From a virus, in IMG/VR virus record IMGVR_UViG_3300027733_000032: a DNA stretch of 64,000 nt, one strand, 5' to 3'. The notes under the pieces were generated by a model. The model had not been told where the DNA came from. It made no database searches and was given only the letters and a program-made list of their open reading frames with translations. The translations under genes and the position numbers were made by a program. This document shows positions 25,528 to 55,199 of the stretch, piece after piece (the stretch's first letter is position 1; every line of letters begins with the position of its first letter).

Positions 25528-27558
25528 ATGGCATGGAATAAGACAGAAACAAAATCACTCATCCCTGGTCCGACTAGGGCCATTCTTGGGCCTGGTGCTC
25601 CGATTGCACAAAACCCATCCTTTGAAGGCAAGGGATACCGTGACCCGTGGGACATTGAACGTGCCTACAAAGAGGGAATGCAGAAAGTTACTTGGGTTTC
25701 CCGTTGCATTGACGCAATTGCCGGGAATCAGGCACGCCTTCCAATTATTCTTCGTAAGAACAACTCTCCTGATGGCCAGATTGTAAGCAAGGGCAGGAGC
25801 GGGAAGTCAACAATATTAGACCTCTTAAATACCAAGTCCAATATTGGTGAAAATTCATACATTTTTAGGTACAGAATGTCATCTCAGATTTTGCTGGGAA
25901 CTCGTGGTGCCTTTATTGAAAAAGTGCGTGGGCGAGATGGTGGGATTATTGGACTAAACCTGCTCCCGCCGCAGCATACAAGCCCTATTCCCGACCCTAA
26001 AACTTTTGTTTCTGGATACGAAGTCCTTATGCCGAATGGCGACAAGGTAATCATGAAACCTCAGGACGTATGCTGGATTCGTAGGCCACACCCAATTGAC
26101 CCGTATCTTTCCTTGACTCCAATGGAATCTGCTGGTGTTGCCATTGAAATTGAAAACTTAGCCAAACTATATAACCGCAACTTCCTTCTCAATGACGGTA
26201 GACCCGGTGGGCTTCTTGTTCTTCGTGGAGAGATTGACGATGATGATAAAGAAGAATTGAGAAGTCGATTCAGAGGAAATATTGGACGAGTTGGCTCAAC
26301 TACGGTAGTTAGTGCGGATGATGGCGTTGATTTCGTGGATACCTCATCAAGCCCAAGAGATGCCGCCTATATCCAAATGCGTCAAATTACAAAAGAGGAA
26401 ATTCTTGCCTCTTTCGGAGTCCCCGAATCAGTCATTGGCAACGCCTCTGGCAGAACTTTCAGCAATGCGAGTGAAGAAATCCGTGTTTTCTGGAATGAAA
26501 CGATGGGGCCACACTTGGAAATTCTTGCCAGAGCACTCGACGAACTAGACGATGACCATTACGTCGATTTTGACACTTCGTCTGTCCCTGTTTTGATTAT
26601 GGCCAAACAAGAGGTTGAGCGTTATAGCCTAGAAGAATTCAGAAGCGGAATGATAAGTCTAAACGAATATAGGACTGTGACTGGCAGGGAAAAAGTTGAG
26701 TCAGAACTGGCCGACAGCCTCCTAATGAACCCCAACCTGACCCCAATCGGCAATACGGAAAAGCCCATGGCCCCACCACAGCAGGGTATGCCCATGCCGG
26801 GGGCACAGCCAGGAATGCCGCCGGGAATGCCGGGAATGCCACCAGAAGCAGCAGGAATGCCCCCAGGGGCGCCAGATGCAAATACGATGAGCGGTGCACT
26901 TGCCATGGAGCAAGCCGGGGGAATGGCCACTCCAGGAGGCGCTCCTGCGATACCCCCAGAGATGACTGGAGGCCCTGCGGCTGCCGGTCCGGGAGCGTTC
27001 GGTCAAATGTCCATGAATCCTGCGGAAATGCAGTTCAAAGAAGACATTAGTGAAGTTTCGCTCAATCGCTGGACCGAGATATTAGATAGAAGTCTCGAAC
27101 GAGTTATGGAGCGTAGTCAGCGTGTTGTTTTAGAAAAATTGAGTGGTCAAAAATCAAAGAAATCCCTAGCCCAGGGTGTTCTTGACATAAATTCAATTCT
27201 TCAAACCGATGTTTGGACCAGACAGATGGACGAGGACATTCGACCCGTTCTGTCTGCCATTATAAAAGACTCAAAAATCAATCATGCGGAGAAGTGGGCA
27301 ATGTATACGCCCCCCACAAACGAAGAAACTGCCGTAAACATAGATGCTCAAATGGGAAGAATAAAATCCCTTTATGATTCCTGCGTAGCAACACTTTCAG
27401 AATCTATATTCAACTCTTACGGGATAAGTAGTGATGATGAGCGGTATACCGCTTTACGGACGTCTGTTAATACCGTCTTTACGGACATGTTAGCCAACCA
27501 GCGTCCACGCATTGCTTCCTCAGAGGCAAAACGCGCATGGGAATTCTGCCGCCCATAA
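25528..27558 (+). CDS. HK97-family portal protein with Pro/Gly/Met-rich linker and helical C-terminal extension
   Basis: WVSRCIDAIA, NDGRPGG, FGVPESVIG-x-x-x-x-x-TFSNA, ISLNEYR. Confidence 0.93.
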   Translation: MAWNKTETKSLIPGPTRAILGPGAPIAQNPSFEGKGYRDPWDIERAYKEGMQKVTWVSRCIDAIAGNQARLPIILRKNNSPDGQIVSKGRSGKSTILDLLNTKSNIGENSYIFRYRMSSQILLGTRGAFIEKVRGRDGGIIGLNLLPPQHTSPIPDPKTFVSGYEVLMPNGDKVIMKPQDVCWIRRPHPIDPYLSLTPMESAGVAIEIENLAKLYNRNFLLNDGRPGGLLVLRGEIDDDDKEELRSRFRGNIGRVGSTTVVSADDGVDFVDTSSSPRDAAYIQMRQITKEEILASFGVPESVIGNASGRTFSNASEEIRVFWNETMGPHLEILARALDELDDDHYVDFDTSSVPVLIMAKQEVERYSLEEFRSGMISLNEYRTVTGREKVESELADSLLMNPNLTPIGNTEKPMAPPQQGMPMPGAQPGMPPGMPGMPPEAAGMPPGAPDANTMSGALAMEQAGGMATPGGAPAIPPEMTGGPAAAGPGAFGQMSMNPAEMQFKEDISEVSLNRWTEILDRSLERVMERSQRVVLEKLSGQKSKKSLAQGVLDINSILQTDVWTRQMDEDIRPVLSAIIKDSKINHAEKWAMYTPPTNEETAVNIDAQMGRIKSLYDSCVATLSESIFNSYGISSDDERYTALRTSVNTVFTDMLANQRPRIASSEAKRAWEFCRP

Positions 27559-27682: not shown

Positions 27683-29143
27683 ATGTCGCAAAATACCACG
27701 TCAGATATCAATTTCAAGGCACTTAATGGGCAGTTCAATATTGATGAGGCCCAAGGAATCGTCGAATGTTTTGTTGCTGCTATTGGCAACAAGGACAGCG
27801 TAGGCGACGTAATTGTCTCGGGGGCGTTTAATGAAAGTCTCAAGCGTCGCAAGCCTCGCGTAGTTTGGGGACACAGTTGGAATGACCCCATCGGTAAGGT
27901 CATCGAGATTTACGAAGTACCCGCAAACGACCCGCGACTGCCAGCAAAGATGAAGCAGGCCGGAGTTGGTGGAGTTTATGCACGCGTTCAGTTTAATCTC
28001 GCAACTGAAAAAGGAAGAGAAGCATTCTCTAGCGTTGCATTCTTTGGTCCAGAACAAGAATGGTCAATTGGCTACAAGACACTCAATGCCACTTTCGACC
28101 CAAATGTACAGGCTAACATTTTAAGAGAAGTCGAACTTTATGAAGTAAGTCCTGTTCTCCATGGTGCCAATCAGTTGACCGCCACCATCTCCGTAAAGAG
28201 CGAAGAGGGTGAAAAGTGTGGCGTTCCAATGGGTATGCCAAATTCCCCTCATATGTACGGTGGTACCCCTGCCCCCTCTGCAATACCACGGATTGTCTCC
28301 GTTGATGCCAACAGGCTTTCTCCAATACGAGTCATTAGTGGAGTTGCCCAGCAGGCCCGACCCGACCATAGCAATAATTCACGTGAAGATATTTTTGGTG
28401 AAGGAGAGGCGAGAACACTTTCGGATGAAGCACGGAATATGCTTGCCATGGAATTAATGACGCGTTCCCGTGCGAATCTTGATGTTGTTTATGCAACAGA
28501 AAATTCCGTAGTATTCAACCGCGAGGTTGGGCAAGGAAACCACATTACATACCGTCTTTCGTATTACAGAGACCCGGATAGTGGCGAATATATGTTTGGC
28601 AAGCCCGAAAAAATGGGCAGTCATAGCGATGACAGTAGAATTGCCTCGCCAACCGTAGTCCCATCACAGATGCCTTCGATGCCAATGATGGTCAAACCAC
28701 AGGCCGTCAATCCGTACTCGATGAGCGGAATGCCTTCTGCTGTTCCCCAGATGGGTAATTATGGAATGGAAAAGTCACTTGATTTTGGCGCAGATACAGC
28801 GGCAGATTTTGTTCTTTCAGGAATTCAAAACGGCTCTATTTCTTCGTCTACCGGAAATGAAAAAATTGACGCAGTTATTGACATTCTCAAGGGAATGACC
28901 GGGAAGTCGGATAATCAGCAGGTATTTACCATTGCGTGTGAACCACATGAGGCTTTCTATATTAAGTCAGCAATCGACCCGGTTCTCGAATACCACCGCC
29001 TTGATGTAGAAATCGACGAATACGGTATTCATGTCGTCAATGGGCTATCCACTGAATCAATTAGCGCATTAACCAAGGCCGCAGAATCTATCGAAACTAT
29101 CACCACTAAGGCTGGTGGTTCAAAAAAATACAAGCGCCCTTAG
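27683..29143 (+). CDS. HK97-type prohead maturation protease with long C-terminal extension
   Basis: AGGAG SD before ATG 27683; DSVGDVIVSGAF, WGHSWNDPIGK, EWSIGY and LYEVSPVLHGAN. Confidence 0.93.
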   Translation: MSQNTTSDINFKALNGQFNIDEAQGIVECFVAAIGNKDSVGDVIVSGAFNESLKRRKPRVVWGHSWNDPIGKVIEIYEVPANDPRLPAKMKQAGVGGVYARVQFNLATEKGREAFSSVAFFGPEQEWSIGYKTLNATFDPNVQANILREVELYEVSPVLHGANQLTATISVKSEEGEKCGVPMGMPNSPHMYGGTPAPSAIPRIVSVDANRLSPIRVISGVAQQARPDHSNNSREDIFGEGEARTLSDEARNMLAMELMTRSRANLDVVYATENSVVFNREVGQGNHITYRLSYYRDPDSGEYMFGKPEKMGSHSDDSRIASPTVVPSQMPSMPMMVKPQAVNPYSMSGMPSAVPQMGNYGMEKSLDFGADTAADFVLSGIQNGSISSSTGNEKIDAVIDILKGMTGKSDNQQVFTIACEPHEAFYIKSAIDPVLEYHRLDVEIDEYGIHVVNGLSTESISALTKAAESIETITTKAGGSKKYKRP

Positions 29144-29190
29144 TTTTCGGCCTTGGGTTAAGTCTCGAATCTAAGGGCCTAGGGCCAAAA
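29122..29190 (+). other. predicted -1 programmed ribosomal frameshift signal
   Basis: A AAA AAA heptamer in the protease frame (29122-29128), 7-nt spacer, stem GCCCTTAG (29136-29143) / CTAAGGGC (29171-29178), with pseudoknot potential to 29179-29190. Confidence 0.8.
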
Positions 29191-32100
29191 ATTGGAACAC
29201 GACTTAGTGGTGGGCTTCGTGCAGCACCGCCAGGAATGTCATTTGTTGACATAACAGGAACCGTTGACGCAGATACAGACGGAATAGTGTTTGAAGGCAA
29301 GCCCGGTCTTGAACGACCCATAATCCCTAGATTCCTTGTACCTAAGAATCTTGCTCGCAAAATTTCTTCACTCACCGAAGGCGACGCCCTAGAAATAGAA
29401 AAGCAACGACGCAGTGGTGACGGCAATATTTCCTTTGACGAAACAAAACTTCGCTCAATTATTGAAAAAATTGGCGGAGACGTCAACTCCTTGAAGCCCG
29501 TGGACGATACAGCCGAAACCGGCATGCGTAGTGCGAACGCCTCAGACGGCCCGGATTTCCAAGAACCACCGATTGCCGATGTACCAGAACAGTTTGATGG
29601 TTTCTGGACCCCAGACGAAGAACAATTGCGCGACCTAGATAAGCGTTCTGGTCGCAGGACACCTCCTCCTCCTCCTGCCAATATCGGGCAGAAGTATGTA
29701 ATTTCACGGGATGATGATGGCGTTTATTTTGCGGAGAATATTTCAGCAGAAGATGTTTGGTCGCTTCGTTCCGGTGCATCAAAAGCGCCGAAGCGTCCTT
29801 TCTTTGCCCCACGTGGAGGCGGGAATAAGCCAGATAACGGCGAAGGTTATTACTTCTCTACAAACGGAAAACGCTATTGGGGCAAGTATGGCGCAGCGGG
29901 AGCGTTGGTCCGTCGTAAAAATTCAGACGGAGAATACGAATATTTTCTAGCGAGACGCGCTGATGGTATGTCGGTCGGTGGTGGCAAGTGGTCATTCCCT
30001 GGTGGGGCACACAAAGATAAAGAAAATTCAAAACTTCCAGGTGCTACTGCGATTGAAGAATTTGGCGAAGAGGTTGGTGGAGATATCTCTACACTCAAAC
30101 CAATTCACACCTACACAGACCAGGTTGCCCCTGACTGGAAATACGACACTTACGTGTTTGAGGTTGGGCCGGATGAACTGAATGACTTACGGTCGATGGA
30201 CGGCGAAAGCACTGATACGGGTTGGTTTACGGCATCTGACATTATACAAATGGCAGAAGACGACAAACTTCTAGAGTCATTCAAACGTTCAGCAAAAGAA
30301 GTATTTGCTCTTTCTGGAGATGAAGTCAAGGGCAATAAAACTACAAGAAAAATTAAAAAAACATTGAAGAAAATTAGTGGCGAAAAAGTTACTTCTTGGC
30401 AAGAAAAGATAAAAAAATACGAACCAATTGAACCAGAAGATTATTTTGATATCAATAATGAAATGCAGTCTGATTTTGGTATTTCTATTGGCCAAGTGAT
30501 GCAGGATGAATACGATGAAGGCGCATCTATTAAGGAGATTGCGGAAAACTGGGGAATTTCAGCCCATGAAGTTGAAAAATTGCTTAGTGAAAATAAAAAG
30601 GGCGGAATGTCATCAACTTCCGTCGGACAAATCATGCAGGATGAATACGACGAGGGTGCGTCAATAAAAGAAATTGCAGAAAATTGGGATATAACGACTC
30701 AAGAAGTTGAAGATTTTATGAGTCGACCACCTTCTGTCGGGATGTCATCTGCCAAAACGAATAGAGATTCACGAGGGCGCGACGCAACGCCAGCAAAAAA
30801 GAAAAAATTAGACTCCGTTATAGATTTTGTTATAGACAAAATTAGTCCAGTCACAGTAATCCAAGCATATATAGATTTTTCTGATAGACGACAGGAAAAA
30901 AAGAATCCAAGCCTTACGGCTGAACGTCTTGCAAGAGAAGAAAAAATGAAGTCAGGAGTCGATAAAGCAGGCAAATCAGGCATATCTATTGCTACAAAAA
31001 TGGCATTACCAGAGTACAAGACGCTTATGGAGAAAGTTTCCCTAAATGGGGAGACTGTTCTGGCAAGTACATCAGCAAGAACTGCCGAAGTTCAAAAACT
31101 TATCGACAATTTGGCATCAAAAGTTGATGGTGATTTGGATGGAATGGATTTCTCCAAAGGAAACTTCTCTGGCATTGATTTTAAAAATTACTCATTACGT
31201 AACGCAAGTTTCTTTGGCTCCACTCTTGATAAATCTAATTTTTCTGGATGCATTATTGACAGCGCCACTTTTGAAGATGCTTCTTTAATTGATGCAAATT
31301 TAAGCAAGATAAGTCAAGCATGGCGCATCGATTTCTCGGGAGCGAATCTAACAAATGCAGATTTAACCAAACTCAATATGCACTCCGCTCTATTGAACGA
31401 AACAAACCTTGAAGGGGCAAAACTTGATGGAGTAAATCTAATCATGGCTGACATTAGGGATATGGATTTCTCTAACGCTCGAAGCATGAGGGGTGTCTTG
31501 CTAGAAGAAGTACAGGGAGAAGGTGCAAACTTTGGTGGTCTCGATATGACCAACTCATCCTTTGTCTCCGCAAACTTGACAAACACTAATTTTAGTAATG
31601 CAAATTTAACTCGTTCAGATTTAAGAAACGCAAAACTGGATAAGGCTGATTTTAGTGGCGCAAACATGGAGGGTATTGAACTAGAAAAACCAGGTTTATC
31701 TCCATCCAGCATGAAAGAAACAAAATTTGACAATATGCCGACCAAGGGCGAAGAGGGCACCCCTTCGGGTATGAGTTCCCTTACGCGTCCCTATCGTGAT
31801 ACCAGTGATGAAGAGTTAAAGGCCCTGTACGAAAAATATTTACGTTACCTAGGCGGCCCTGGGGACAAGGGTGACAGCGATTTTACATACATGCGACGGT
31901 CAAAAGAATATGACAAAATTAAGAAAGAAATTGCTCGGCGTGAGAAAGATGGCAAAAAACCAAGCAAGGGAATGAGTTCTGAAACAAAGTTGCCAGGAAA
32001 TAAAGAAATGCCAGGATTACCAGATGATGAATTAACATCAAAACTTGATGACAATGTAAATTCGCTCAATGAACTGGAAACTCTTCTTGACGATGGAGAA

Positions 32101-35100
32101 ATTGACCTCGCCGAGTACAGAAAGCGTCAAATCCCATTACGTAAAGAAGCGGCAGAATTGGGCGCAGAGAAAAAACGTCGGTCTGGTGAAAAGCCAAAAA
32201 CTGGTGAAACTGGCACTCTAAAAAGAGAAAAAGTCATAGACCGTGGCGATGGGATGATTAAGCGCGACGAACGCGGAAATCCATCTGAATGGAATGGGCA
32301 GAAATTCTTAGACGGAGAAGCAGGAAAACGCAGACAGGCGATTCTTGAACTTGGCTTCACCGAGCAAGAAGCAGACACTCTTCTTGGCCAGCGACCAAGT
32401 CCGCAAAAATCCGGCATGGGAAGTCGCAGCAGCGCCAAGACTAAGCCTACATTTTCACTCACTCCATTGAACTTGTTCATCAAGCGCGAGACAACGCGAA
32501 CAAAAGGACCGGTCCCAGAGTTGAGCGGATGGTCAGACAGAGAATTGGCCGATTCTCTCTCAATGTACGATATTCGCGCACCACGTGCGTGGGACGAAGA
32601 ACGTGGTTCATTCATTCCTTCATGGTTCCCTTCGAAAGACTCTCTAGTTCGTGAATTTGATAGTCGTGGTTACAACGTATTTCTTGGTACGTCTGGTTCA
32701 AGACAATACAACGATTTAATGTTCTCTGTTCTGGCGAAAGATAATGCCATCCCGCAAGAAATGCGCAGGAGAATATGGAAGCCGTCAGGATTGCTTACGA
32801 AGGCAGTACGTGATGGTGAAGAAGAAACGGGTCAAGTTTTCCCATTGAAGTCAAGGATGAAGAATTGGGAGTTTGCGGCGCAAGCGGCAGATATGACTGA
32901 TGTAGAAGTTCGCTCACTAGATGTCGAGTTCGACAATGAACGAGCAAATAAACTCGCCGACGTACGGTCGGGAATAATCTCCAAGGAGCAGTTTAATAAA
33001 TGGTACGAGGGAGAACTCACGCCGCTTAGACGTGCGCTTTCTGCAGAACTTACACGTCGTTCGTTAAGGAAGGCCGTAGATGGAAAACAGACAATAGAAT
33101 CTGTTTTTGGTACCGGACTAACACCAAGAGAATATGCATTCCTATCAAAGGACCCATTGTTATTTACTCGGGCAGCGGGAATGATGTCGCGCAATGGTGG
33201 TTCAACTATCGACAAGATGGTTAAAAATGGAGAAATTACTCAAGAAGACCTTGAGTTCATACAGCAATACCATGACCTATCTGACAGACTAAGCGTTGAT
33301 TTGTATGACGAGTTAACGAATTTATTTGGCTCAAATCCGGATGACGTTGATTGGGATTCGCTTGATATCGATACTAAGTCAAAGTCGCGAGATATTCACG
33401 CTAAGTGGATGAGAAAATATTCTGCATCATTATCTCAATTGGGCGACGGTCAAAAAAGAAGTCGCAATGAACTTGCGAATATGGGCTTTGACGATGGGGA
33501 AATCGACGACATAATGACCGGAAGCATGTCTTCTGGTGGCATGTCTTCCAAGCGTAAATCAAACAAAAAAATTACGTCAAAATGGTCTGAAGAAGACAGG
33601 CGTGCATTTACTGAACAAAACCTTCGTTCCAAGAAAGTACCGAAGAAGAAAAAGAAAGGTCCAGTAGCCAACGAATGGACCGAACGTCGCGCTGGAAGAG
33701 AAATTAAGTCAACGACGCGAGCAAGTGATTCTACTTATGGCGATTCTGCAAAAACAGCATCGTATTACGAGTCTCTCGCAAATCAATATTTTTCTGGAAT
33801 TGCTGAATATGTTGGCGAAGACACTCGAATAGTAAACAGTAATTACAACCCAAATATACCTACCATGGATGAGCCGTTTGCATCAATCCGAACGTCGACA
33901 GTTGGCTCACTCAAGGATGGGGACTTCCTTCCTGACGGATTTGATGCTCCAAGCATGTTTTCTACTCCTACGAATCCACGTTACAAAGTTGTCTATGTGA
34001 GCAAAGACAAAGATGGGCAGATTGTATTCGGAGCACGCGATTTACAGACTGGTGAATTGCTCGTAAAGAAAATGGGCGTAAATGAAATTCTTCCAAATGT
34101 CATGCGTCAATCTACCAATAAGCGATTTGGTGGAATGTCCAGTTCTAGGAAAGTTGGAGATGTAAAACTTCACGCCAAGTTGGCCGACCAATTTAAATTC
34201 GAACAATTTGATGAAATTGAGAAAGACCTGAATGGTTTTATTGACGAAATAAATTCAATCAATGAACAACTTAATATTATTTGGAAAAATGGCCAGCGCC
34301 GCACAGACGCTGGACTGCCAGATTCTGACTTTGACGAAAAACGCTATGGCGAACTAGAAGATATGCGTTCGAGCCTAGAAGATACAGTCGGAGAATATGT
34401 AAAATTCGCCGAATTTGTTGCTCAAGAAAATATTATGCGTCGCCGCAATAAGGCTGCAGTAAAACTTGCAAAAGAAAAAGTTCAAAATGCACTAAAAAAA
34501 CAAGAGTCTCCAAGCGGCAATCCATTTGAGATGAACGATATTGATACTCGTAGGCTTTTTGAACTTGGAGTGACAGAAGCAGACGTTGCTGACATATTGG
34601 ATTCATTCGACATTGATGACCGAGAGATGGAAAGAGTATTTACTGCTGGTCGACCACCATTTACTGGGACAAAATTTGCTAAGCAAATTTCCAGCATTAT
34701 AGATAGTCGCTCTTCACTAGATGGTCCTGAATTTGAAGAATTTGACCCAGAAGACGAAGACGAACAAAGAGAGATTTCAAAACTTGCAAGAAGAATGATT
34801 AATTCTGCGGCAGACGATTCTGCTCGTCGTTCCAAAATCACCGACCGCTCAAAGACGATGATTGATGTTGGCGTATCCTCTTCGTCTTCTGGCGGCATGT
34901 CAAGCAAGACACCAATGGGTAAAGGGCTTGGCACCAGTAAGGTCCTCTACCCAACGCGACCAAATAAATTTATCGCAAAAGATGTTTCGTTTGTATTTTA
35001 CGATGCCAATCGCGAAGAGTTGTCTGTTGGCTACAAAGATAAAAAGAAATATGTTTTTGGTGGCATTACTCCAGAAATGGTCAACGACATTGAGAATGGC

Positions 35101-38100
35101 AAAAATTCACTAATCGCTTCACTCAATGCCGTCAAGAAAGATGCGCGCTACACAATCAACCCAGATGGCACGGTCATGGGCTCGCCCCCGAATACCCTCA
35201 AGTTACTGAATCGCGACAAGGACAGACTTGAGTTAATTGGCGATGACCTCGAAGTCGTTGAGTCTGTTATTGACGGCCTAAAGAATGGCCAAAACGACAT
35301 GACGCGCAAAATGCGCAGCGATAGAAGAAATCAAGCCATGTCAATGGCATCTGGATTGGCTAAAAATAATGAATACGCAATGGCTTTCAATATCATGGAC
35401 GCACTTGATGAGATAGATACGCGCACTAATGGCGCTGGGTATATGCCCAATGGAATGCGCTCGTACGCGGCAACAATACATCCAAGAGTTCAAGTTGGTC
35501 TATCACAGGATGAAGTTGGCGAAATCCGTGATGAAATACGCGCGATAATGCGTAAACATAACGGGAATTTCTTTATCAAGGATGGCCTATCCAAGTACGA
35601 CGGCAATCTTGCTGCTGCACAAAAGAAAGAAGGACGTGCTCAACTAGTACTCCTTTTGCCTGAATATAACGCCATCATGAATTCCTATGAAGAATTAGCG
35701 AAAATTGACCCAGACTGGACTTCTGTTGTCGGGCCACATCCGGTGGAACTTGCTGGTGTTAGCAAGGACGGACGATTCGACACGGAGAAATTCAAGCAGA
35801 CTGGAGATTTTGCCGGAAAACTCATCAACAATGGAGCACCTAGTGAAATCACTGTTGCTGAACAGCGCGAATTGATTAATTGGGCAAGACGTCAACCCGG
35901 TTTCAGAATTGTTCAAAGTATTGCCTCTTCATATGATGAAAAAAATGGCGCACTTACCGCGAATCAGTGGCGCACGCTCCGTTCACTTCATAGTAACTAT
36001 GGCAAGAATCAATACAACAGAGGCGGCTTAGAATCTAGAAGAAACTCTATTGGTATGCGTTCAACCAGTAGTACCGATGGACCCATGCCCATGAATGCGG
36101 TTTCCGGAAATACCATGGGGAATTTTGTTCCCTATGGCGGACCAACCGAAGGTGGCTCACGCAACGCCGAAGTTATTCCCAATGTAGACATCAAAGGCAA
36201 ATCAGTAGAGCAGGTGGTTCCAGAAGGAATCAGCGATGAAGAAGCATTGGCACTCATAGAGAGTATCGGTGCATATCACCCCAAGGCGAACCCTGATGGA
36301 ATCAAGGGACGAGAGTATGTCGAGCGTAGAACGCGCTTGCTGGATTCAATCGCAGAAACACGCAGAATCACCGAGCGACGAGCAGCACTTGAGCGCGCTC
36401 AGCAAAGTGGCCAAATAGGCGACGACGTCAACCTGCCAAGTCATTTAGAGTTTTGGCCATTGGTTTCAGAAGACACTAAGTCCAGGTTGAATACGGCTGC
36501 GCAAAACAAATATGGCGCTCAATTCATAGACCTAGAACCATACCAAATGGAAGATGTATTGGTTTTTGAAACAGGCGCATCTGGCTACTACTCCGCTGGG
36601 ACTTTTAAGCAAATTAAAAAGCGACCAAACGCCATTGATATGGAGGACTGGGAACGCTTGCTCCTTCCAGTTCATCAGCGTGTCAGCGAAATAGATGAAG
36701 AAGAAAAAATAAAGCGCGAGGCTGCTCGACTTGAAGCCGATAATAGTCCATCGCTCGAAGACATGTTAGACGACCCCAATATTGCCCCAGAACGCAAAGC
36801 CCGAATTGAAGGCATCCTTGCAATGCGGCGCGAGTCGGAGCGAAAGTGGAAAGAGTCTGCACAAACCTCTTCGGCAAAACGCAGAAGTGCTGCAAAGAAG
36901 GAAATAAAACTTCAAAAATATGAAACCATTGATGATGTTGGGCGAGACTCAGTTAAAAATATTGAGACAATGGCCAAGGCTAAGTATGGGTCTAAGTTTG
37001 ACTCCCTCACTCCCGTACAACAAAAAGATGTACTTGACTCTTACGCCAAGGAAAGATTTGGCGTTGAGCATTACAGGAACATTGAACAGTCAGTCCAGAA
37101 GGCGCAGTCAATGGCCGAACGTTTCTCTCAACAAGAAAGAATTGACGGAGAACACCTAGCGGCATGGGATTCAATTACTGATTTCTTCAACTCATCAGAG
37201 CAACCTTCATTCACTGGCGAAAAAATAGATTCTTTACGTGAACTACTAGACAATTATCCAATTGAAAATGAAAATTCAACCGATGCCGAATTATTGTTGA
37301 GTAATAAGATTGAAGATATTTCTTCACTTATTGACGAAATGGAAATGTCTTATGATGACGAAAACATAACCATACCTACTGGCCGTACCGGTGGAATGGC
37401 TTCAAGCAAAAAATTCACTCCGCGTGGGGTGGAGGTTGAGCGAGATGAATCATCTTCACGTATTGGTGGCATGTCATCTCTATTTAACAGAAATAAGCCA
37501 GACAAAACAGAAACAGATACTGGCACGGTGAAGGCTCCAGATAAGCCTTCAAAGCCGGAACGCAAGAAGCCAATTGTTACAGATGGATGGAAAAAAGTTG
37601 GCGGTCAAGGCGGCTCTAATCCGGGCGGATTTTTTGAAGATGAGAATGGCGTTCGCCATTACGTAAAGACGCCACGAAGTCTCTCTCATATTGAAAGTGA
37701 AGTGCTCGCGGCAGAACTATACAAGATGCTCGGTCTCGGGGTTCCGCAAATTTCCCAAGGCTCGTATCAAGGTAAGCCCAATGTCGTATCAACACTTATT
37801 AGCGAACCAAGCAGACCCATCACTGGGGCTATGGGTGACGGTAGTAAGCAATGGCAAGCAAAAGTCATTGAAGGATTTGTGGCAGACGCATGGCTCGCCA
37901 ACTGGGATGCCGTACTTAATGACAATGTTCGTGCTGACAAAAACGGAAACCCTATTCGTGTTGATAATGGTGGCTCCATGAAGTGGAGAGCGCAAGGCGG
38001 CCCGAAGGGTGCAGCATGGGGGAATACTGTTGGTGAAATTGACTCACTAAGAGGACAAAGCCCTGCTGCTCCTGTGTATAGGCAGATAACTGACCAGCAA

Positions 38101-39528
38101 ATCAAGGACCAAGTTGCAAAACTGGAAGCAATTTCTCCGGACACAATCAAAGCGACTGTGGCTTCAATCGTGTCCGACCCCGCCGAAGCAAAAGAATTAA
38201 CAGACACGCTGTTGGCAAGAAGGCAAGACCTCATTAATCGCTTCGGCAAGGGGCGTAGTGCAGGAATGTCTTCACGCACTGCACTAAAACCAATGCCAGA
38301 ATTTGGTTCACAGAAATTTATGGAATCTCTGCCTGCGACACTCAGCGACCTCTCGAATGAGGAACTTATGCGAATGTGGGACTCAACGAGGCCGTTTGTC
38401 AACCTACAGCAGTACGAGATGGGCGAGAATGCGAAGAATTTGAATATCCGAATGGAGAAAATTAAAACAGATATTCGTAAGAGAATTAAGAGTGAAGTTT
38501 CTTTGAGGAATGGTGCTCCGGAATCTCGTTCTGAAAAAATCGGCCAAGGGTCTGCTGAGGCCATGGCTCGGGCTTCGGTAGAAAGAAAGAATCGCTCCGA
38601 GGCAATTAGAAATTTATTAAATAATCGTTCAAACGCGATTAAGAAGTATTACTCCTCAACGCGCATGGAAGACGACCAACACACCGCCATATGGGACGAC
38701 ATAGATGCAGCCCTCATGGCAGACGGTGATACAGACATTACACTCTCCAAACTTGACTCAATGATTCAACTTTTAGATGACTATATTTCTTCTAACAAAA
38801 AAGATGTTTCCAAAAATGAACAGAGACGCAATGTGGGTCAGGCTGAAAAAATGCGCATCTCTCTTGCTCAATTAGCAGAAGAGTATGCAAGCGACCCATA
38901 TGTGAAAAATGGCGGAGAAGACTTGGAAAAGCCAAAGACTCCACGAATTAATCGCAATGGGGCAGAAACTCAGAATCCTGCATCAGAAAATAACAATATT
39001 TCTTCACGAATTTCCATGGCTCCAACTAAAACAACCGCTCAATATATGAGCGCACGCAAGGGTGAAGCAAGAGCAGAGGGGATGCGTTCATCTACGGGTA
39101 TGGCGTCCAAAACCGGGAGGGCGGAGATTCGTGGAGAAGCAACTTTCTTTAAGTCTATCCAAGACATGCTCTTATATGAAGCAGGAAAATCAGACGATTC
39201 TAAAGCGTCTTCCGCCCTACGTACGCTACACACAATAATGACAAGACAGAAGTCGGGCCTCATATCCGACAAGAGAACTAACGCTGGGGCAATATATTTA
39301 ATGCAGGATGAATTAGACAACATTTTAGATGCGTTATTTCTATCCATTGACAGACAGGTCGGTAGAGACAATGCAGATAGAGCAAAATTGCTATCAAATT
39401 TTGCTGACATGCTAGCAATGGCTGGTATGGCCACATTTATTGACAAGTCAGTTCCAGAAGTCAATTCCCGAACAGTCAAAAAATTCAATAGCGAGGGGAG
39501 AGAAGTGGAAATACCCTTAAATGAATAA
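29128..39528 (+). CDS. giant modular cargo polyprotein A (Nudix, duplicated HTH-like, pentapeptide repeats, KTSC-like, HipA/PI3K-like kinase), probably made as a protease frameshift fusion
   Basis: Frame is open from 29110 with no start codon until 29236, yet homology to protein D begins about 20 aa before that ATG. Domain motifs are listed in the findings. Confidence 0.8.
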   Translation: MQAPLVFGLGLSLESKGLGPKIGTRLSGGLRAAPPGMSFVDITGTVDADTDGIVFEGKPGLERPIIPRFLVPKNLARKISSLTEGDALEIEKQRRSGDGNISFDETKLRSIIEKIGGDVNSLKPVDDTAETGMRSANASDGPDFQEPPIADVPEQFDGFWTPDEEQLRDLDKRSGRRTPPPPPANIGQKYVISRDDDGVYFAENISAEDVWSLRSGASKAPKRPFFAPRGGGNKPDNGEGYYFSTNGKRYWGKYGAAGALVRRKNSDGEYEYFLARRADGMSVGGGKWSFPGGAHKDKENSKLPGATAIEEFGEEVGGDISTLKPIHTYTDQVAPDWKYDTYVFEVGPDELNDLRSMDGESTDTGWFTASDIIQMAEDDKLLESFKRSAKEVFALSGDEVKGNKTTRKIKKTLKKISGEKVTSWQEKIKKYEPIEPEDYFDINNEMQSDFGISIGQVMQDEYDEGASIKEIAENWGISAHEVEKLLSENKKGGMSSTSVGQIMQDEYDEGASIKEIAENWDITTQEVEDFMSRPPSVGMSSAKTNRDSRGRDATPAKKKKLDSVIDFVIDKISPVTVIQAYIDFSDRRQEKKNPSLTAERLAREEKMKSGVDKAGKSGISIATKMALPEYKTLMEKVSLNGETVLASTSARTAEVQKLIDNLASKVDGDLDGMDFSKGNFSGIDFKNYSLRNASFFGSTLDKSNFSGCIIDSATFEDASLIDANLSKISQAWRIDFSGANLTNADLTKLNMHSALLNETNLEGAKLDGVNLIMADIRDMDFSNARSMRGVLLEEVQGEGANFGGLDMTNSSFVSANLTNTNFSNANLTRSDLRNAKLDKADFSGANMEGIELEKPGLSPSSMKETKFDNMPTKGEEGTPSGMSSLTRPYRDTSDEELKALYEKYLRYLGGPGDKGDSDFTYMRRSKEYDKIKKEIARREKDGKKPSKGMSSETKLPGNKEMPGLPDDELTSKLDDNVNSLNELETLLDDGEIDLAEYRKRQIPLRKEAAELGAEKKRRSGEKPKTGETGTLKREKVIDRGDGMIKRDERGNPSEWNGQKFLDGEAGKRRQAILELGFTEQEADTLLGQRPSPQKSGMGSRSSAKTKPTFSLTPLNLFIKRETTRTKGPVPELSGWSDRELADSLSMYDIRAPRAWDEERGSFIPSWFPSKDSLVREFDSRGYNVFLGTSGSRQYNDLMFSVLAKDNAIPQEMRRRIWKPSGLLTKAVRDGEEETGQVFPLKSRMKNWEFAAQAADMTDVEVRSLDVEFDNERANKLADVRSGIISKEQFNKWYEGELTPLRRALSAELTRRSLRKAVDGKQTIESVFGTGLTPREYAFLSKDPLLFTRAAGMMSRNGGSTIDKMVKNGEITQEDLEFIQQYHDLSDRLSVDLYDELTNLFGSNPDDVDWDSLDIDTKSKSRDIHAKWMRKYSASLSQLGDGQKRSRNELANMGFDDGEIDDIMTGSMSSGGMSSKRKSNKKITSKWSEEDRRAFTEQNLRSKKVPKKKKKGPVANEWTERRAGREIKSTTRASDSTYGDSAKTASYYESLANQYFSGIAEYVGEDTRIVNSNYNPNIPTMDEPFASIRTSTVGSLKDGDFLPDGFDAPSMFSTPTNPRYKVVYVSKDKDGQIVFGARDLQTGELLVKKMGVNEILPNVMRQSTNKRFGGMSSSRKVGDVKLHAKLADQFKFEQFDEIEKDLNGFIDEINSINEQLNIIWKNGQRRTDAGLPDSDFDEKRYGELEDMRSSLEDTVGEYVKFAEFVAQENIMRRRNKAAVKLAKEKVQNALKKQESPSGNPFEMNDIDTRRLFELGVTEADVADILDSFDIDDREMERVFTAGRPPFTGTKFAKQISSIIDSRSSLDGPEFEEFDPEDEDEQREISKLARRMINSAADDSARRSKITDRSKTMIDVGVSSSSSGGMSSKTPMGKGLGTSKVLYPTRPNKFIAKDVSFVFYDANREELSVGYKDKKKYVFGGITPEMVNDIENGKNSLIASLNAVKKDARYTINPDGTVMGSPPNTLKLLNRDKDRLELIGDDLEVVESVIDGLKNGQNDMTRKMRSDRRNQAMSMASGLAKNNEYAMAFNIMDALDEIDTRTNGAGYMPNGMRSYAATIHPRVQVGLSQDEVGEIRDEIRAIMRKHNGNFFIKDGLSKYDGNLAAAQKKEGRAQLVLLLPEYNAIMNSYEELAKIDPDWTSVVGPHPVELAGVSKDGRFDTEKFKQTGDFAGKLINNGAPSEITVAEQRELINWARRQPGFRIVQSIASSYDEKNGALTANQWRTLRSLHSNYGKNQYNRGGLESRRNSIGMRSTSSTDGPMPMNAVSGNTMGNFVPYGGPTEGGSRNAEVIPNVDIKGKSVEQVVPEGISDEEALALIESIGAYHPKANPDGIKGREYVERRTRLLDSIAETRRITERRAALERAQQSGQIGDDVNLPSHLEFWPLVSEDTKSRLNTAAQNKYGAQFIDLEPYQMEDVLVFETGASGYYSAGTFKQIKKRPNAIDMEDWERLLLPVHQRVSEIDEEEKIKREAARLEADNSPSLEDMLDDPNIAPERKARIEGILAMRRESERKWKESAQTSSAKRRSAAKKEIKLQKYETIDDVGRDSVKNIETMAKAKYGSKFDSLTPVQQKDVLDSYAKERFGVEHYRNIEQSVQKAQSMAERFSQQERIDGEHLAAWDSITDFFNSSEQPSFTGEKIDSLRELLDNYPIENENSTDAELLLSNKIEDISSLIDEMEMSYDDENITIPTGRTGGMASSKKFTPRGVEVERDESSSRIGGMSSLFNRNKPDKTETDTGTVKAPDKPSKPERKKPIVTDGWKKVGGQGGSNPGGFFEDENGVRHYVKTPRSLSHIESEVLAAELYKMLGLGVPQISQGSYQGKPNVVSTLISEPSRPITGAMGDGSKQWQAKVIEGFVADAWLANWDAVLNDNVRADKNGNPIRVDNGGSMKWRAQGGPKGAAWGNTVGEIDSLRGQSPAAPVYRQITDQQIKDQVAKLEAISPDTIKATVASIVSDPAEAKELTDTLLARRQDLINRFGKGRSAGMSSRTALKPMPEFGSQKFMESLPATLSDLSNEELMRMWDSTRPFVNLQQYEMGENAKNLNIRMEKIKTDIRKRIKSEVSLRNGAPESRSEKIGQGSAEAMARASVERKNRSEAIRNLLNNRSNAIKKYYSSTRMEDDQHTAIWDDIDAALMADGDTDITLSKLDSMIQLLDDYISSNKKDVSKNEQRRNVGQAEKMRISLAQLAEEYASDPYVKNGGEDLEKPKTPRINRNGAETQNPASENNNISSRISMAPTKTTAQYMSARKGEARAEGMRSSTGMASKTGRAEIRGEATFFKSIQDMLLYEAGKSDDSKASSALRTLHTIMTRQKSGLISDKRTNAGAIYLMQDELDNILDALFLSIDRQVGRDNADRAKLLSNFADMLAMAGMATFIDKSVPEVNSRTVKKFNSEGREVEIPLNE
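30481..30720 (+). repeat. tandem duplication of a ~35-aa HTH-like unit
   Basis: S[IV]GQ[VI]MQDEYDEGASIKEIAENW occurs twice, separated by KGGMSS. Confidence 0.85.
31140..31720 (+). repeat. pentapeptide repeat domain in protein A
   Basis: A[DN]L-x-x type repeats (ANLTNADLTK, ANLTNTNFSNANLT). Confidence 0.9.
31768..31945 (+). repeat. 55-aa module copy 1 (RPYRDTSDEEL...YLGGPGDKGD...ARRE)
   Basis: Near-identical to the copies at 50501-50680 and 50710-50880. Confidence 0.92.
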
Positions 39529-39590: not shown

Positions 39591-41387
39591 ATGGCCAAAC
39601 AATTCAAATACTTCTGCATGGTGAACCAAGAAAAGGCTATTATGCCATGTAGTGGTTGTAGTAGCCCCAATGGCTGCCTTTTAAAAACCATGCACTACAA
39701 GGAGTCGACAACAATGAACTACGACGAAAAAGCAATAGTTAAGATTGAAAGCGACGGCAGTGTTGCTAAGTGCGCTAAGGGTCTTGCCGTCAGCGAGTGT
39801 GGCTTTAAGGCTGGCTCAAAAGTCTGTGGCAAGTGTGGTGCCATGCCTGTTCAAATCAAGATGGTTCCTGTTGATGACATGGCAGACGAAGACATGATGG
39901 ACGAAGAAGACGACATGACCGAGCAGCAGAAAATGATGATGCGTCGTCGTACTGCTCGCAAGGCTATGGGGATGCCCATGGACGATACGGAAGACGAAGA
40001 AACCGTAGCCGAAGACATGGAGTCAATGCCTGAAGATGAGGAAATGACTAACGGCAAGATGTGGGGCGGAAAGCCGTACCGCAAGGGCATGCGTATGCCT
40101 GCATCAGAAATCATGGACGACGAAGACATGATGGATGACGAAGAAGACGTGGCTAGCAAGTCGCATGACGACAACATGAAGAGAATGCGTCGTCAAAGAA
40201 AAGCAATGGATGCCGCAATGAGCATGGGCGATGACGAGGATTTGCCAGACGAAGACATGATGGATGATGAAGAAGAAGTCATGGCTACTCCAAAGGGCTA
40301 CGGTCGTGGTGGTATGCGCTACAAGTTGGACGAAGAAGACATGGCCGAAGGTCCAGAAGACGGCATAGATGATGAGGAAGACCTCCTTGAAGGCGACGAA
40401 GAGGAAGACATCGTTCCCATGCGTCGCCCAATGAATGGTCAGACCCCCAGCATGGAAGACCTCCGTATGGCTCGTCTCCGCAAAATGGGCACCAAGTCTG
40501 CCGACGTCGGAATTAATGGATACCTCTGTGCAATTGACCGCAAAGTACATCCAGGTTCAATCTCCGTCTGTGATGACTGCCCAGGTGGCTGCATGGCAGA
40601 AAAGGGACTCCCAGGGCTCCTCCACATCGAAGGTCTCGCAGAAATGATGTTCAAGGGTGACGTTATCGATTCTGGCTACTCACAAGAAGCCGACATGTTC
40701 GTTATCGACGTTCAGACTAAGTCTGGCAATGTCAATGAGATTTTCATTGATGGAACCACGGCAGAAGTGCTTGGATTCCACCGTCTTGATGACAGCGTTT
40801 TTGAACAGAAGTCGCTCATGGACGATATTCAACTTATCGACTTCAATGAAGCCGCTGAACTTGCCGTGAAGTCGGTTCCTGGAATCGTCGTGGCTGTTGA
40901 GCCAAGCGTATTTGAGGGATTTGACGCCTATCAAGTAGAAGTGGATGGCTTTGACCAGAAGTCCTATGACGTGTTCGTCGCCCTTGATGGCGAAGTTCTT
41001 GGCTGGGATAAGTGGGAGCCTGAAGACACCGACCAGATTGAGGCAGAGGCTGCAGAAATTGCACTAAAGAGAGCGTTTCCGGACGACAAGCGTCAAGAAA
41101 TGGCCAAAGAAGGCACCGCAATGGATGACGGTTCTTTCCCAATTGCCAATGAATCTGACCTTCGTAACGCAATCATGTCTCATGGCCGAGCAAAAGATGT
41201 CGAGGCAGCAAAAATGCACATCATGAAACAAGCCAAGGCAATGGGCAAGGAAGACATGATTCCTGCTGAATGGGTTTCCGGCGGGGAGAAGTCGCTAACT
41301 GTCGAAGGCGGTCCCACCGATGAATTCCTTAAGACTCTTGTTGAGTTTGAATTGCTTTCGGCTGAAGTTGACGAAACCGGTAAGTGA
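39591..41387 (+). CDS. acidic Met-rich head-associated protein with Cys clusters, two PepSY-like domains and a C-terminal GSFPI..DL-x-NAI..GRA domain (scaffold/core candidate)
   Basis: Motifs visible in the translation; alternative start at 39714 with AAGGAG SD. Confidence 0.6.
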   Translation: MAKQFKYFCMVNQEKAIMPCSGCSSPNGCLLKTMHYKESTTMNYDEKAIVKIESDGSVAKCAKGLAVSECGFKAGSKVCGKCGAMPVQIKMVPVDDMADEDMMDEEDDMTEQQKMMMRRRTARKAMGMPMDDTEDEETVAEDMESMPEDEEMTNGKMWGGKPYRKGMRMPASEIMDDEDMMDDEEDVASKSHDDNMKRMRRQRKAMDAAMSMGDDEDLPDEDMMDDEEEVMATPKGYGRGGMRYKLDEEDMAEGPEDGIDDEEDLLEGDEEEDIVPMRRPMNGQTPSMEDLRMARLRKMGTKSADVGINGYLCAIDRKVHPGSISVCDDCPGGCMAEKGLPGLLHIEGLAEMMFKGDVIDSGYSQEADMFVIDVQTKSGNVNEIFIDGTTAEVLGFHRLDDSVFEQKSLMDDIQLIDFNEAAELAVKSVPGIVVAVEPSVFEGFDAYQVEVDGFDQKSYDVFVALDGEVLGWDKWEPEDTDQIEAEAAEIALKRAFPDDKRQEMAKEGTAMDDGSFPIANESDLRNAIMSHGRAKDVEAAKMHIMKQAKAMGKEDMIPAEWVSGGEKSLTVEGGPTDEFLKTLVEFELLSAEVDETGK

Positions 41388-41416
41388 CAAAGCAGTAAGT
41401 GGGATTGGAGCCCGGA

Positions 41417-44400
41417 ATGGCGGGTAAAGGTATCCCTCATCGTTATTCCATTAAGCGTTCCAATACGTTGCATGAGCGTAACATCGATGAGGTTGCTCTA
41501 TATTTTAAAGAACTACAGACGTATGCTGCTGCTCAGCCATACCTCAACCCATTTCTTTCCATCAAAGCACTAAGCCCTGACGCTAAGGCCAGCAACGCCA
41601 CTGCTAAGCCTGAATCAAAACGTACCTCAGCAGACGAGGATGAGCAAAAACTAAAAATAGAGTTCAACCCTAAGGCGACACGTAAACCAGGTCAGGTATT
41701 AAAACTTCACGTTACCTATGACGAAATGAAGTCAAAAGAAGGTGCCAAATTTGGCTGGATTGACCCAGCAAAAATGCCTTCCAAAGAAGAAATAAAAGCA
41801 AGCAAAGAAGAATTCAAAAAGACTATTGCAAGTAGGCCTACTGCAGTTTTTCGCGAGTATGAGCGTGGTCTGGACGGCAACCCAACACCTCGCCTTCTAA
41901 GTGAAGTTCGCTACAAGGGGCTTGGACAAACGATTGGGCAAATGCAGCCCGAACAGCGTGTAGGTAATGCTGCAGCGGCGGCTCTTGGTGTCGTATTTGA
42001 TGCTGCCGGAAAAATGCGCTGCCCTCCAGGCACACCAAATGCAAACCAATTTACTGACGAAAACATGTCTAACTGTTTTGTATTTTCCCCATTGACCGTA
42101 GCGCGAGAAATTCTACGCGTTGGTCGACGTCTCGCCGAAAGACTAGATGGCAGCGGTGGAGCGACCAGCAGGCAAGACCTTCGTTTTGATACTGCCTATG
42201 ACGCCGAAGCATTCCGAAAAGCAGAACGAGTAAAGGGCGTCTACACTAAAGCCGAAAGAATGCGGGAGAAGTGGGGTGCAAGAACAAGCGCAATAGAAAA
42301 TATGTTTACAAAACATGGCATTGATATGGACGACTCCATTGGTGCTGCAAACGGAGACCATATTCATGCTCTTGCTAATGAATATAGTTTTTCTAAAATT
42401 GCAAAAATATATTCCGATGCGGACCCTGACTTTACATTCTTCGACCCATCAAATGGCGAGGAAATAACCGACGACATCTGGAATTCTTTTGACTCTGCAA
42501 AGAAGGCAGAAGTCGCGTCGTACAATGCAAAACGCTACGACGAATCATTACGTCAAGAAATTACAGAGATGGTTCCTGAATCGATTAGGGAAGCAGCAAG
42601 AAATGGTGATGCTGATGCTCAGAAAGCCCTAGACGAGTATGTCGAGCGCACCCGAGAGATTCACCACAAAACGCAACGAGGAATGCTTGGTTCATTGCTT
42701 CAATACAAAGACGAAATGGGCGATAGGCAAGATGCTTTTGGTGGTTTCAGTAGTCATGGAATTTCTGGAAAAGATTTAGTCACTACGGAGGCAATGGCAT
42801 TGCCTAACATGGATGAAAATGGGATGCCTGCGGTGACCATTACCATCAATCCAATGTCCGTCGCTGTTCGAGGTAGGATGCCTTACGAAAAAAATGGTTC
42901 GCTATTTCTTGAAATAGAATCAGATGTGTCTCTCAGTGAAGCAGAGAAACAAACAGAGATATTAAGAGTTATGCGCGAAATTACTGATGCGCAAGAATTT
43001 GTAAACCTTGTTGGTTATGCTAACGAACAAAGTGCCGCTCGTGGAGTTGCTGACCTTGGCGTTTCCTCAGAGGAGATGAAGGGTGCTCACGTCATGTGGC
43101 ACGAACTTGGTCACGTTCAACAATATAACGTTGCTAGAAATAAAATATATGATTTTTATGACAAAAATGGTTTCTTCCCCGTAGTCATTGACGGAAAACT
43201 TGAAAAATTAGAAACACCTCCAGCAGCATGGAGCAATGGGACGTGGGCAAGTGCCATGGACTCAATGATGGGTGCCACTGCCGATAGAGGGGGGCCCTTC
43301 GCCAAAACGGGCGCAATGGGATTCCCTCCCTTTGGGACAGACGAGTTTGAAGATTCATTTCTTCATTTTGTATCTGGCAATTACTATCAAGACAAAGTTC
43401 AGGGAGCACTAGGAGTACTTGGTCTCCCTGAAGAAGGTGCGCATCGTCAACTTGCCCTCATGGAGGGAACGACAGAACTCTTTGCGCTTGAAAAATTGGG
43501 AGTTATCGAAGGTCCGGAAGTAAGGCAATTCACTTCATGGATGGACCCCGTAGACCCAGCACCAGTACCCTCACTACCTCCTGGGGCCCCACCTGAGGTT
43601 CCTGACGTCCCAGGACCAGATGTCCCCGAGATACCGACTGCGCCGCCAACAACGCCATCCCCGCCCCCTGGAACAACAATAATTGATAACAGCACGACTA
43701 TCAATATCGTTATCAATGGACCAATAAATATCCATGTTGGTGGAACGGCTCCGGATTGGGACGAAGGAGCCATTGAGCCCCCAATTCCACCAAGAAAAAC
43801 CGTCGACCTTAAGTGGGAAGACATAACGCCAATGATTCTTGCGGACAAAGACTCTCAGTGGACTGCCTCTCCATCAAGTGGCGCTGATATTGGGCAGAAC
43901 AAAGACATGCAAAAACTGTGGTTGGACAGCGTATTTGGCATGGGTCCAGAAGAGGGGGGATTTGTACCAGAACAAGGTGAACTTCCTCGCATAGATAAAG
44001 ACGCCTATTGGAAGTTGTCTCCACAGCAAATGGATACTAGATACGAGTTTTTACGTGGTGAAGCAGATGCTTTAATTCTTAAATCGGAAACAGAATCATT
44101 AAATAAAGATGAGCAAGCCAAGTTATGGCTCGCAACAAAGGGCATGCAACAAATACTTGACATGAATGGCAAGAAAGCAGCACTCGCCGACGCCAAACGT
44201 GAAGAATACCTAAGAGATGGCTTCGACCCGACTCCAGGGAAGTACCTAAGACAAGTCGACTCACCACTGAAACCTCAGCAAAAAGGTTTCCGAAAATTAG
44301 CAACAAAACGTGCCGAAGAACGTGGTTACGATGTCGTTGAAATAGACGATGATGAACTTTCGCACTGGGCGCGTGAAATTTCAGACCATGCTGGAACAGC

Positions 44401-51706: not shown

Positions 51707-51990
51707 TGAAAATGATTTCATCCGATACCCCTGAATCAACTAGGTACTTCTTTCATGTGCTCAACAATGGGAAGGTTATTGGCCTATTTCGCCTTTATCT
51801 CAACCTGGACTACCCGAAGAAAGGCTCCAAGGGGATTGAGGAAGTTGAATGGAGAAAAGATGAGTGGCTCGCCACCACCGACCTTACTGGTTTTATGATT
51901 AACGGCTCCCATGAAATAATGGAAGTCGACGAGGAAATAGCACGTTCAAAGTTTCCAAAAGCATTTGATGAAAATGAAGGCACAAAGTGA
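51706..51990 (+). CDS. small protein coupled to the RelA/SpoT domain, candidate immunity protein (94 aa)
   Basis: TAATG stop/start overlap, GGAGG SD. Confidence 0.55.
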   Translation: MKMISSDTPESTRYFFHVLNNGKVIGLFRLYLNLDYPKKGSKGIEEVEWRKDEWLATTDLTGFMINGSHEIMEVDEEIARSKFPKAFDENEGTK

Positions 51991-54900: not shown

Positions 54901-55199
54901 CGAGCATCAAGACGGGCAGGTCGGGTACGGGTTATGCCCCATATATGGGACACCTCACTCCTCAGCATTTACCAATGTTGGCCATCCATCCACAATTTTC
55001 TGAATTTACGGCAGAATTTGCCGTTGCCGAACTATTTGGTGTTGCTTTATCGCAAATAGACATATCTATATCACCAGATGGTAAAAAATCTGCCACTACG
55101 CGAGCATTGTCGGATAATGAGATAGCGGCAATAATGAAATTTATGAGATGGATGTATCCAAATCAAATGTTGGGCGAAAAAATGGAGACAATGCAGTGA
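51987..55199 (+). CDS. large modular protein C with DxDxDG tag and HExxH (HESNH) motif
   Basis: GTGA overlap; IDGDGDGFVDDG-x-x-x-x-RP; GGMRS; HESNH at 53700. Confidence 0.75.
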   Translation: MKLRAVLVGTFYDSKLYYLLDPVGEKNSTGALVDKKGNVEYVKFFHFIKSNPNVKELKFSKFHRFLWNAPSPEDKPKWMRTFINGTQPVGEEMLQGAKIITELSPVVEKKQDIGERALQFKSMNASQNASRIQGSVLARSVKSIREKYGFKGIGMSIGNKPAIDGDGDGFVDDGLPTMRPFIPGFDFVLDAAGNIRETKPTNQITKPVTRGGMRSGVVTRPQTLEDRLAPISEQEMRDSFRKIRSYVEMKFNDGVPFSKKGEALAILKKTIPSFASGESYIEFLNNLPNDDDVIPDWARRYLDSFLLSIDAQPMSAQFNYHMRRAADSKSYEGAVGTRPGTNDYVMVDPVGEKYAPTRTRQPLIVFWYKEAVAVTPAVSVTADKRMAPFLVSHAISANAMNEQLLNAGITKRQLEDLNNLDRVDATLVSIITSLNEIIQQNPTARVNDAEKISQNLVNAIEAFVDVKISNSVIDPKTNFFLETPKIPAVTFKDSKDREKPFIQSNILRQLVDKIVKSNNNPLLSDLLTSAQDASLSAQRTISSDNTLRKTQRKLSSIMEDARVLTTGMIAVHESNHMLQNIQAYIDVQNEASILRKKLIDERINAANKLQIPITPEILAAIEDEIKVENLYQDLFVEKAVKLAKSDIDLAKSRLLHADLARVDAISLNLERDKKSPEYKKTPDEAPAHYGWRNTDAVVDATNQMILKWAEFNNQGDSSLSDKQKLAKQAIVDFLKQPLFDGTNEIKIGEGIARILNQLDAIYVGDLSTAFANNGPRFVSGENLNIGMVAILLNSALIEDAQRRNIFSGLKLRNYSALLNEVGFPDFAIMDMNGDGVKIQGLDINESRKLSAAIMNMNRLALSIPTDPTNGMVSPSLSVRATTALRAFPDDAMLPWPFSNLTKTEFLALPDDTFIKGYEKLIDTSLKALLGVARPQDIGTFLEDSLISMNWWDKLSKEEIELLLEVGKRIGEPSIKTGRSGTGYAPYMGHLTPQHLPMLAIHPQFSEFTAEFAVAELFGVALSQIDISISPDGKKSATTRALSDNEIAAIMKFMRWMYPNQMLGEKMETMQ

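Follow-up and report, generated by a model that had tools for sequence, protein, structure and literature searches.

A phage prohead protease gene that is very likely extended by a programmed −1 frameshift into a giant cargo polyprotein

How is a reading frame of 3,466 codons expressed when it runs on from the end of a phage protease gene one base out of register, and is open well before its first possible start codon? The question is raised by positions 27683 to 39528 of the window, the whole 64,000-nucleotide stretch of viral DNA analysed here, which belongs to a 90-kb virus record about 60% complete. Together with a terminase-portal-protease head module, this record carries several giant ORFs, a tail sheath gene and, beyond the window, a presumed capsid gene. 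Its sole S78 gene is an HK97-type prohead protease ORF (27683..29143, + strand) that lies between the portal gene (25528..27558, + strand; Pfam PF04860, E 1e-45) and the presumed major capsid gene; the S78 domain spans residues 23-175 of the product (PF04586, E 4e-12, over cut-off), whose translation contains WGH and WSIG motifs. A C-terminal domain of about 90 aa (28860..29128, + strand), present in both predicted products of the locus and in relatives that have no cargo, is modelled as a small alpha/beta fold (pLDDT 66); fold searches with this model and with that of the cargo C-terminal domain returned generic matches only (best Z 7.1 and 6.4).

The best cultured matches, confined to the protease domain and at 36-41%, are in Gordonia, Brevibacterium and Streptomyces phages, and no relative was found in GTDB genomes. 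There are two relatives with complete genomes (151 and 158 kb), and each of them has two WhiB genes. The virus is probably an actinobacterial myovirus, and the sample identifiers suggest that these phages come from freshwater. Several features of the surroundings were recorded in passing. Downstream of the cargo, 39591-41387 encodes a 598-aa acidic protein, rich in Met and Asp and with an N-terminal Cys cluster, that has no family match, directly follows the protease in cargo-less relatives and is a possible scaffold. The window's 219-aa protein (55596-56255) is fused into the protease ORF of contig L030 (near 5800), where it constitutes another protease fusion partner. The terminase genes on the minus strand of L228 (1-523) and L233 (1-564) encode 811 and 785 aa, compared with 434 in the window, and LAGLIDADG and Hom_end matches in the former suggest an intein. 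The tail assembly chaperone is a separate gene (2201-2731, minus strand; PHROG 5088), so that the usual G/GT-type location is not that of the protease junction; a short −1-frame ORF overlaps its end (2030-2731, minus strand) ahead of what is presumed to be the tape measure gene; a G/GT-type frameshift is likely at this place, but no canonical heptamer is present (ACG AAA GGG near the end).

At the junction itself, the protease codons run through a slippery heptamer, A AAA AAA, formed by seven consecutive A (29122..29128, + strand) in frame with them, and TAG (29141-29143) closes frame 0 four codons further on. The −1 frame is open from 29110 to 39528, with no ATG, GTG or TTG until 29236. The coordinates of the heptamer, of an 8-bp stem 7 nt beyond it and of this start-less frame, all contained in a preliminary description of the locus, were verified, and the fusion of ~3,950 aa proposed there computes to 3,948 aa (438 kDa). 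We conclude that a programmed −1 ribosomal frameshift very likely generates two products from this site, namely the 486-aa protease (53 kDa) and a 3,948-aa protease-cargo polyprotein. Because a lone A7 is not unusual in the window, whose + strand holds 23 such runs (about 11 of them in frame in late genes), the case for recoding rests on conservation. Further in-frame A AAA AAA sites occur in late and cargo genes, for instance at 30411, 34494, 47338, 52760, 55916 and 57826. Two other routes into the cargo were considered and rejected: stop read-through or an alternative code, since frame 0 stops again after 5 codons, and a +1 shift, since that frame closes 10 codons past the frame-0 stop.

Just 5' of the shift site, two Gly codons (GGTGGT, 29114..29119, + strand) are complementary to the anti-SD, although their role is uncertain: known SD stimulators of −1 shifts sit at 9-14 nt (PMC5009743), and the element of the window is closer to the heptamer than that. 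Across the family, anti-SD pairing at close spacing falls in the top decile in 28 of 36 junctions and pairing at 9-14 nt in 13 of 36, the window not being among the latter, and GGT-GG is found at 34/41 junctions versus 133/291 in the background. On the 3' side there is a predicted stimulatory hairpin (29136..29178, + strand) whose 8-bp stem (29136-29143/29171-29178) begins 7 nt past the heptamer, includes the frame-0 stop and encloses an inner stem (29146-29149/29166-29169); its pair probability is 0.79 and its fold z −2.0. The outer stem is invariant in all nine close variants, and the inner one shows a single wobble-keeping change and a single break. Conservation in related genomes, a check proposed in the preliminary description, extends to the heptamer, the 7-nt spacing and the stem but not to compensatory changes, none of which is seen among the nine; as the 3' arm also encodes the S-K-G of a putative protease site, the pairing is predicted rather than proven. 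Both points argue against frameshifting, as do the proximity of the SD-like element and the fact that in E. coli A_AAA_AAA is far less shift-prone than A_AAA_AAG (PMC5009743). An additional pseudoknot helix that had been suggested is unsupported, one of its pairs being broken in 5/9 close relatives. The idea of a single hairpin for the entire window clade was also discarded: the other subclade has a different, shorter hairpin, in which the same initial GCCC, at the same 7-nt spacing, pairs with a nearer GGGC instead, so that structures differ by subclade, and pairing is lost in contigs L226 and L231. An Rfam search gave no match for the element.

Scans of viral and metagenome contigs, combined with contig look-ups for protein homologues, identified 22 distinct junctions with the polarity of the window (window included), which derive from separate IMG/VR, JGI, ENA and Logan assemblies and extend down to 62% protease identity. 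All 22 read A AAA AAA followed by T, with a frame-0 stop within 0-4 codons, and in all the relatives the −1 frame stays open until either the gene or the available DNA ends. Lys-Lys is preceded by TCA, CAA or TTA, so that the residue varies (Ser, Gln, Leu) around a constant final A. Synonymous changes are about 9-fold suppressed within the element (6/130, compared with 255/596 outside it; six pairs, not fully independent), and p-values are generally overstated by the non-independence of sequences within a clade. By virtue of the conserved heptamer, the frame break common to these 22 sequences and the frozen synonymous sites, −1 recoding and the resulting protease-cargo fusion, as originally put forward, are strongly supported by comparative evidence.

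What the preliminary description missed is that the signal is family-wide and usually of opposite polarity. About 100 distinct junctions have a slippery site at this place (A AAA AAA, G GGA AAA, T TTT TTT or A9-11), mostly accompanied by lineage-specific hairpins, and in most relatives the protease is in frame with the cargo and the heptamer is retained at the same position. The 48 opposite-polarity junctions consist of 29 with G GGA AAA, 18 with A AAA AAA and one with T TTT TTT; in 47 of them the −1 frame stops after 1-9 codons (background median 8; P of 1 or less, 0.16). In the background, XXXYYYZ sites are in frame at 26 of 44,843 codons, and Gly-Lys is hardly ever written G GGA AAA (3 of 288 pairs). 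While the letters of the heptamer and the amino acids that it encodes change across lineages, the XXXYYYZ form stays; the hairpins of these lineages, unrelated in sequence, start from about 4-7 nt downstream, and 20/31 are in the lowest energy decile. Very probably, then, a slip makes the short protease in the in-frame relatives and the fusion in the window clade.

In a tree rooted on two cargo-less, long-branch proteases, the window type forms one clade (100/99) nested among in-frame lineages, and constraining the other junction types to one clade is rejected (p-AU 8e-8). The distance from the heptamer to a DxDxDG motif in the cargo leader is 46 codons both in the window clade and in the in-frame group of L004, which therefore differ by one net base. 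The window clade is a derived one-base reversal of an ancestral in-frame fusion. The family ancestor would thus have made the fusion in frame and the short form by slipping, and a net loss of one base after the heptamer would have reversed the polarity, changing the share of product that bears cargo from 1−f to f. Two further relatives (L080:6288 and L081:3367) have lost the heptamer and carry the cargo as its own gene, with its own ATG upstream of the Lys of the putative protease site; others have a short protease and no cargo at this position. The short form is therefore predicted to be the universal product.

Could the shift arise from a base added during transcription rather than from ribosomal slippage during translation? 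If RNA polymerase added an A within the run, normal translation of such mRNAs would give the fusion, and a sister clade exhibits what this predicts: its runs are A9-A11, both shifted frames close within about 6 codons, and the hairpin and SD-like element are weak or absent, a pattern known from Thermus dnaX (PMC5009743). That clade fits polymerase slippage, on the evidence of its sequences. For the window the same explanation is unlikely, because polymerases are reported to slip efficiently on runs of 9 (PMC5009743), and runs of about 9 or more A/T are found in the A9-A11 clade but not here, where there are only 7 A; moreover, the 29 relatives with G GGA AAA have just 4 A, and the conserved 3' hairpin lies at ribosomal spacing. 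The A-run clade also contains a second polarity reversal, represented by L303-L305 (three contigs, two sequences; off the tree), in which the long ORF is in the −1 frame; near 3290 (3140 in L304) these contigs read A9 and then G.

Translation of the cargo mainly by itself, from ATG 29236 or by re-initiation, with the heptamer as a relic, is distinctly improbable, even though gene callers place the cargo start there and two relatives do have a separate cargo gene. This ATG has no SD at usable spacing, and its Met is replaced by Leu (TTA) in L003 and L233, and in in-frame fusions it lies inside a motif. Over the 36 codons ahead of it, the window and L002 differ by 12 synonymous changes and a single non-synonymous one, so that the stretch is coding, as the preliminary description had suggested, and constrained at the amino-acid level; a motif of the cargo leader occurs three times in the genome. 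Synonymous sites in the element are frozen. In the relatives with a separate cargo gene, the heptamer has been lost and an ATG has appeared upstream of the Lys site, which speaks against a relic. Less probable still is a broken fusion whose cargo is a recent pseudogene: the cargo is dispensable, in that some relatives lack it altogether, but its frame is open for 3,466 codons in the window and to the end of the contig or locus in all same-polarity relatives, and both its leader and its C-terminal domain are conserved. Finally, that an in-frame fusion was misassembled at the homopolymer, or undergoes phase variation at the DNA level, is scarcely credible despite in-frame fusions being the family norm and contig L238 of the A10 clade being one A off otherwise matching ones (near 3297 it has A9 where L234 has A10; error or phase variation is possible there), for the frame break is shared by 22 sequences that make up one clade, the A7 is also present in in-frame relatives, whose difference lies downstream of it, and L003 maintains the net frame of the window with A8. 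Taken together, the shared break, the constrained 36 codons and the loss of the ATG in L003 and L233 remove assembly error and make independent initiation unlikely.

Programmed frameshifting would accordingly operate as follows. Ribosomes arriving at A AAA AAA would pause at the hairpin, which starts 7 nt further on; part of them would stay in frame and terminate four codons on, releasing the 486-aa protease, and others would slip by −1 and continue to the end of the 3,948-aa polyprotein. The sequence signal and its conservation are observed; from them we infer slippage on the ribosome and its efficiency. The preliminary description had assumed that a minority of ribosomes shift, so as to load a fixed low copy number of effectors; given an ancestral in-frame fusion, a high efficiency is no less compatible with the one-base reversal (PMC5009743). 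A low copy number is possible but not favoured, and reversibility hints at a high efficiency, as in dnaX.

The cargo ORF (−1 frame, 29128..39528, + strand) is a chain of modules. Near its start is a leader made of a Gly-rich stretch and the DxDxDG motif (29176..29331, + strand), which includes Met 29236 and is common to two stand-alone cargo genes and to relatives. Among the modules that follow are NUDIX (29896..30255, + strand; PF00293, E 1e-5, over cut-off; PHROG 1198) and pentapeptide-repeat (31087..31698, + strand; PF00805, E 1e-24; PHROG 15350) domains, as well as weak HTH and KTSC matches. A probable HipA/PI3K-like kinase module (37471..38262, + strand), to be taken as a lead only, was recognized from motifs by eye and a match of 0.92 to an Atlas cluster with PF00454 on 38% of its members; it has no Pfam, PHROG or PDB match. 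A C-terminal helical domain of about 130 aa (39094..39528, + strand; model pLDDT 81) is kept wherever the cargo end is fully sequenced (22 cases, of both polarities). Most modules are without a family match. They are punctuated by GM[SRAG]S motifs, of which there are 16 in this cargo and 38 across five cargo proteins, GMRS and GMSS being 83- to 95-fold enriched. A DNA-repeat origin was excluded because the codons vary freely; this, and the Leu that often replaces Met in relatives, identifies the motif as a protein-level joint. Some relatives are devoid of it and may use another tag. An HTH-like stretch in tandem on both sides of a GMSS joint (30600-30740) suggests module duplication. Four more giant cargo-like genes are present (41399-51706, 51987-55199, 58282-63543 and 63922 onward), which have K/[AGRS]-L sites, GM[SRA]S joints and, in at least three, DxDxDG-type leaders; the cargo amounts to about 13,000 aa in all, with pentapeptide, KTSC-like, ParB-like and head-morphogenesis-like matches.

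Between the protease and the leader, the fusion contains a putative protease site, L-E-S-K/G-L (29164..29181, + strand; Lys codon 29173-29175). Its pattern, phi-x-(x)-K/[AGS]-L, recurs at K12 of the protease, at K98 of the presumed capsid protein and in other cargo leaders; the capsid protein is presumed from position and size, and its F-K98/S99 motif parallels the K103/S104 cleavage site of HK97 (PMC10275583). These motifs and the position of the gene moderately favour a scheme in which the fusion would enter the prohead with the protease and be cut at ESK/GL, with the GM[SRAG]S joints as probable further sites, and the modules would be delivered with the DNA. A need for the protease in cargo targeting, implied in the preliminary description, is not supported: in two relatives the same cargo has its own ATG and carries a leader that is about 20 residues long. 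This leader ends in DEK/A and is reminiscent of a short capsid-targeting propeptide. More tentatively, the locus may embody a Gag-Pol-like programme, in which a protease-borne, self-processed polyprotein would supply about 15 injected effectors and the recoding site would be retuned by changes of polarity (at least twice) or of mechanism (ribosomal heptamer or polymerase A-run) or by gene splitting.

With these observations the few known phage recoding sites gain a gene class in which recoding is hidden in annotations, in-frame members appearing as one giant gene and window-type members as two genes with a wrong start. A single homologous site offers a natural series for the evolution of stoichiometry, from in-frame fusion with slip-to-stop through slip-to-fuse and long A-runs to a split gene and cargo loss. 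Polarity reversal is exemplified by dnaX, and low-efficiency Gag-Pol-like sites are held not to be simply reversible (PMC5009743); measured efficiencies of the cassettes described here would directly test that rule, and the family points to how freshwater actinophages may dose the proteins delivered at infection.

Phage frameshifts covered by a review of recoding fall in tail chaperones and in capsid and tail proteins, and those in structural genes include lambda G/GT, gene 10 of T7 and T3, A2, A118 and PSA (PMC5009743). In common with them, the junction would set the ratio of two virion-assembly products, and the G GGA AAA of the family has also been reported as the shift site in the tail chaperone of mycobacteriophage TM4 (PMC4626039); unlike them, it lies in a maturation protease gene and appends a modular extension of about 3,470 aa rather than a chaperone tail or an Ig domain. 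The carboxysome pair CsoS2A/CsoS2B (PMC5009743) provides another parallel, as a −1 shift to a nearby stop gives the short form of a protein that organises the interior of an icosahedral shell, but that protein is unrelated and involves neither a protease nor a cargo polyprotein. In architecture the cargo recalls phage polyvalent proteins (Iyer et al. 2017, PMC5512222), large multi-module proteins encoded in the portal-capsid region and predicted to be packaged and injected: NUDIX, HTH-like, pentapeptide, KTSC-like and kinase-like modules are combined in one chain within the portal-terminase late region, although the hallmark domains MPTase, ArdC, ART and MuF, like SNF2 and methylase, have no Pfam or PHROG match in it. 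Frameshifting is absent from that 2017 paper, which names proheads only in a reference, and a search of the literature, mostly outside subscription journals, that linked phage proteases, scaffolds and capsids to frameshifting or to polyvalent proteins found no description of this arrangement. The predicted proteolytic processing would be shared with the protease-processed head proteins of T4 and SPN3US (PMC5694885, PMC10052503).

The closest counterparts are dnaX and Gag-Pol. As in bacterial dnaX (PMC5009743), which yields tau and gamma, one gene would give a short and a long product; a −1 shift would lead to an immediate stop in most lineages, with reversed polarity in few and a long A-run variant; and an A-rich heptamer is combined with a hairpin and an SD-like 5' element. 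The family departs from dnaX in that the gene encodes a phage head protease with a variable cargo of 580-3,500 aa and not a polymerase subunit, the junction heptamers end in A and not G, and the SD spacing differs. As in the Gag-Pol of retroviruses and totivirus L-A (PMC5009743), an assembly gene would end in a −1 shift by which a polyprotein is fused to its product, presumably for packaging and later proteolysis; unlike there, the virus is a dsDNA tailed phage, homology is lacking, the ancestral polarity is opposite and the protease, being upstream of the shift, is part of both products. In summary, although it is homologous to neither, the junction resembles dnaX in recoding logic and Gag-Pol in purpose.
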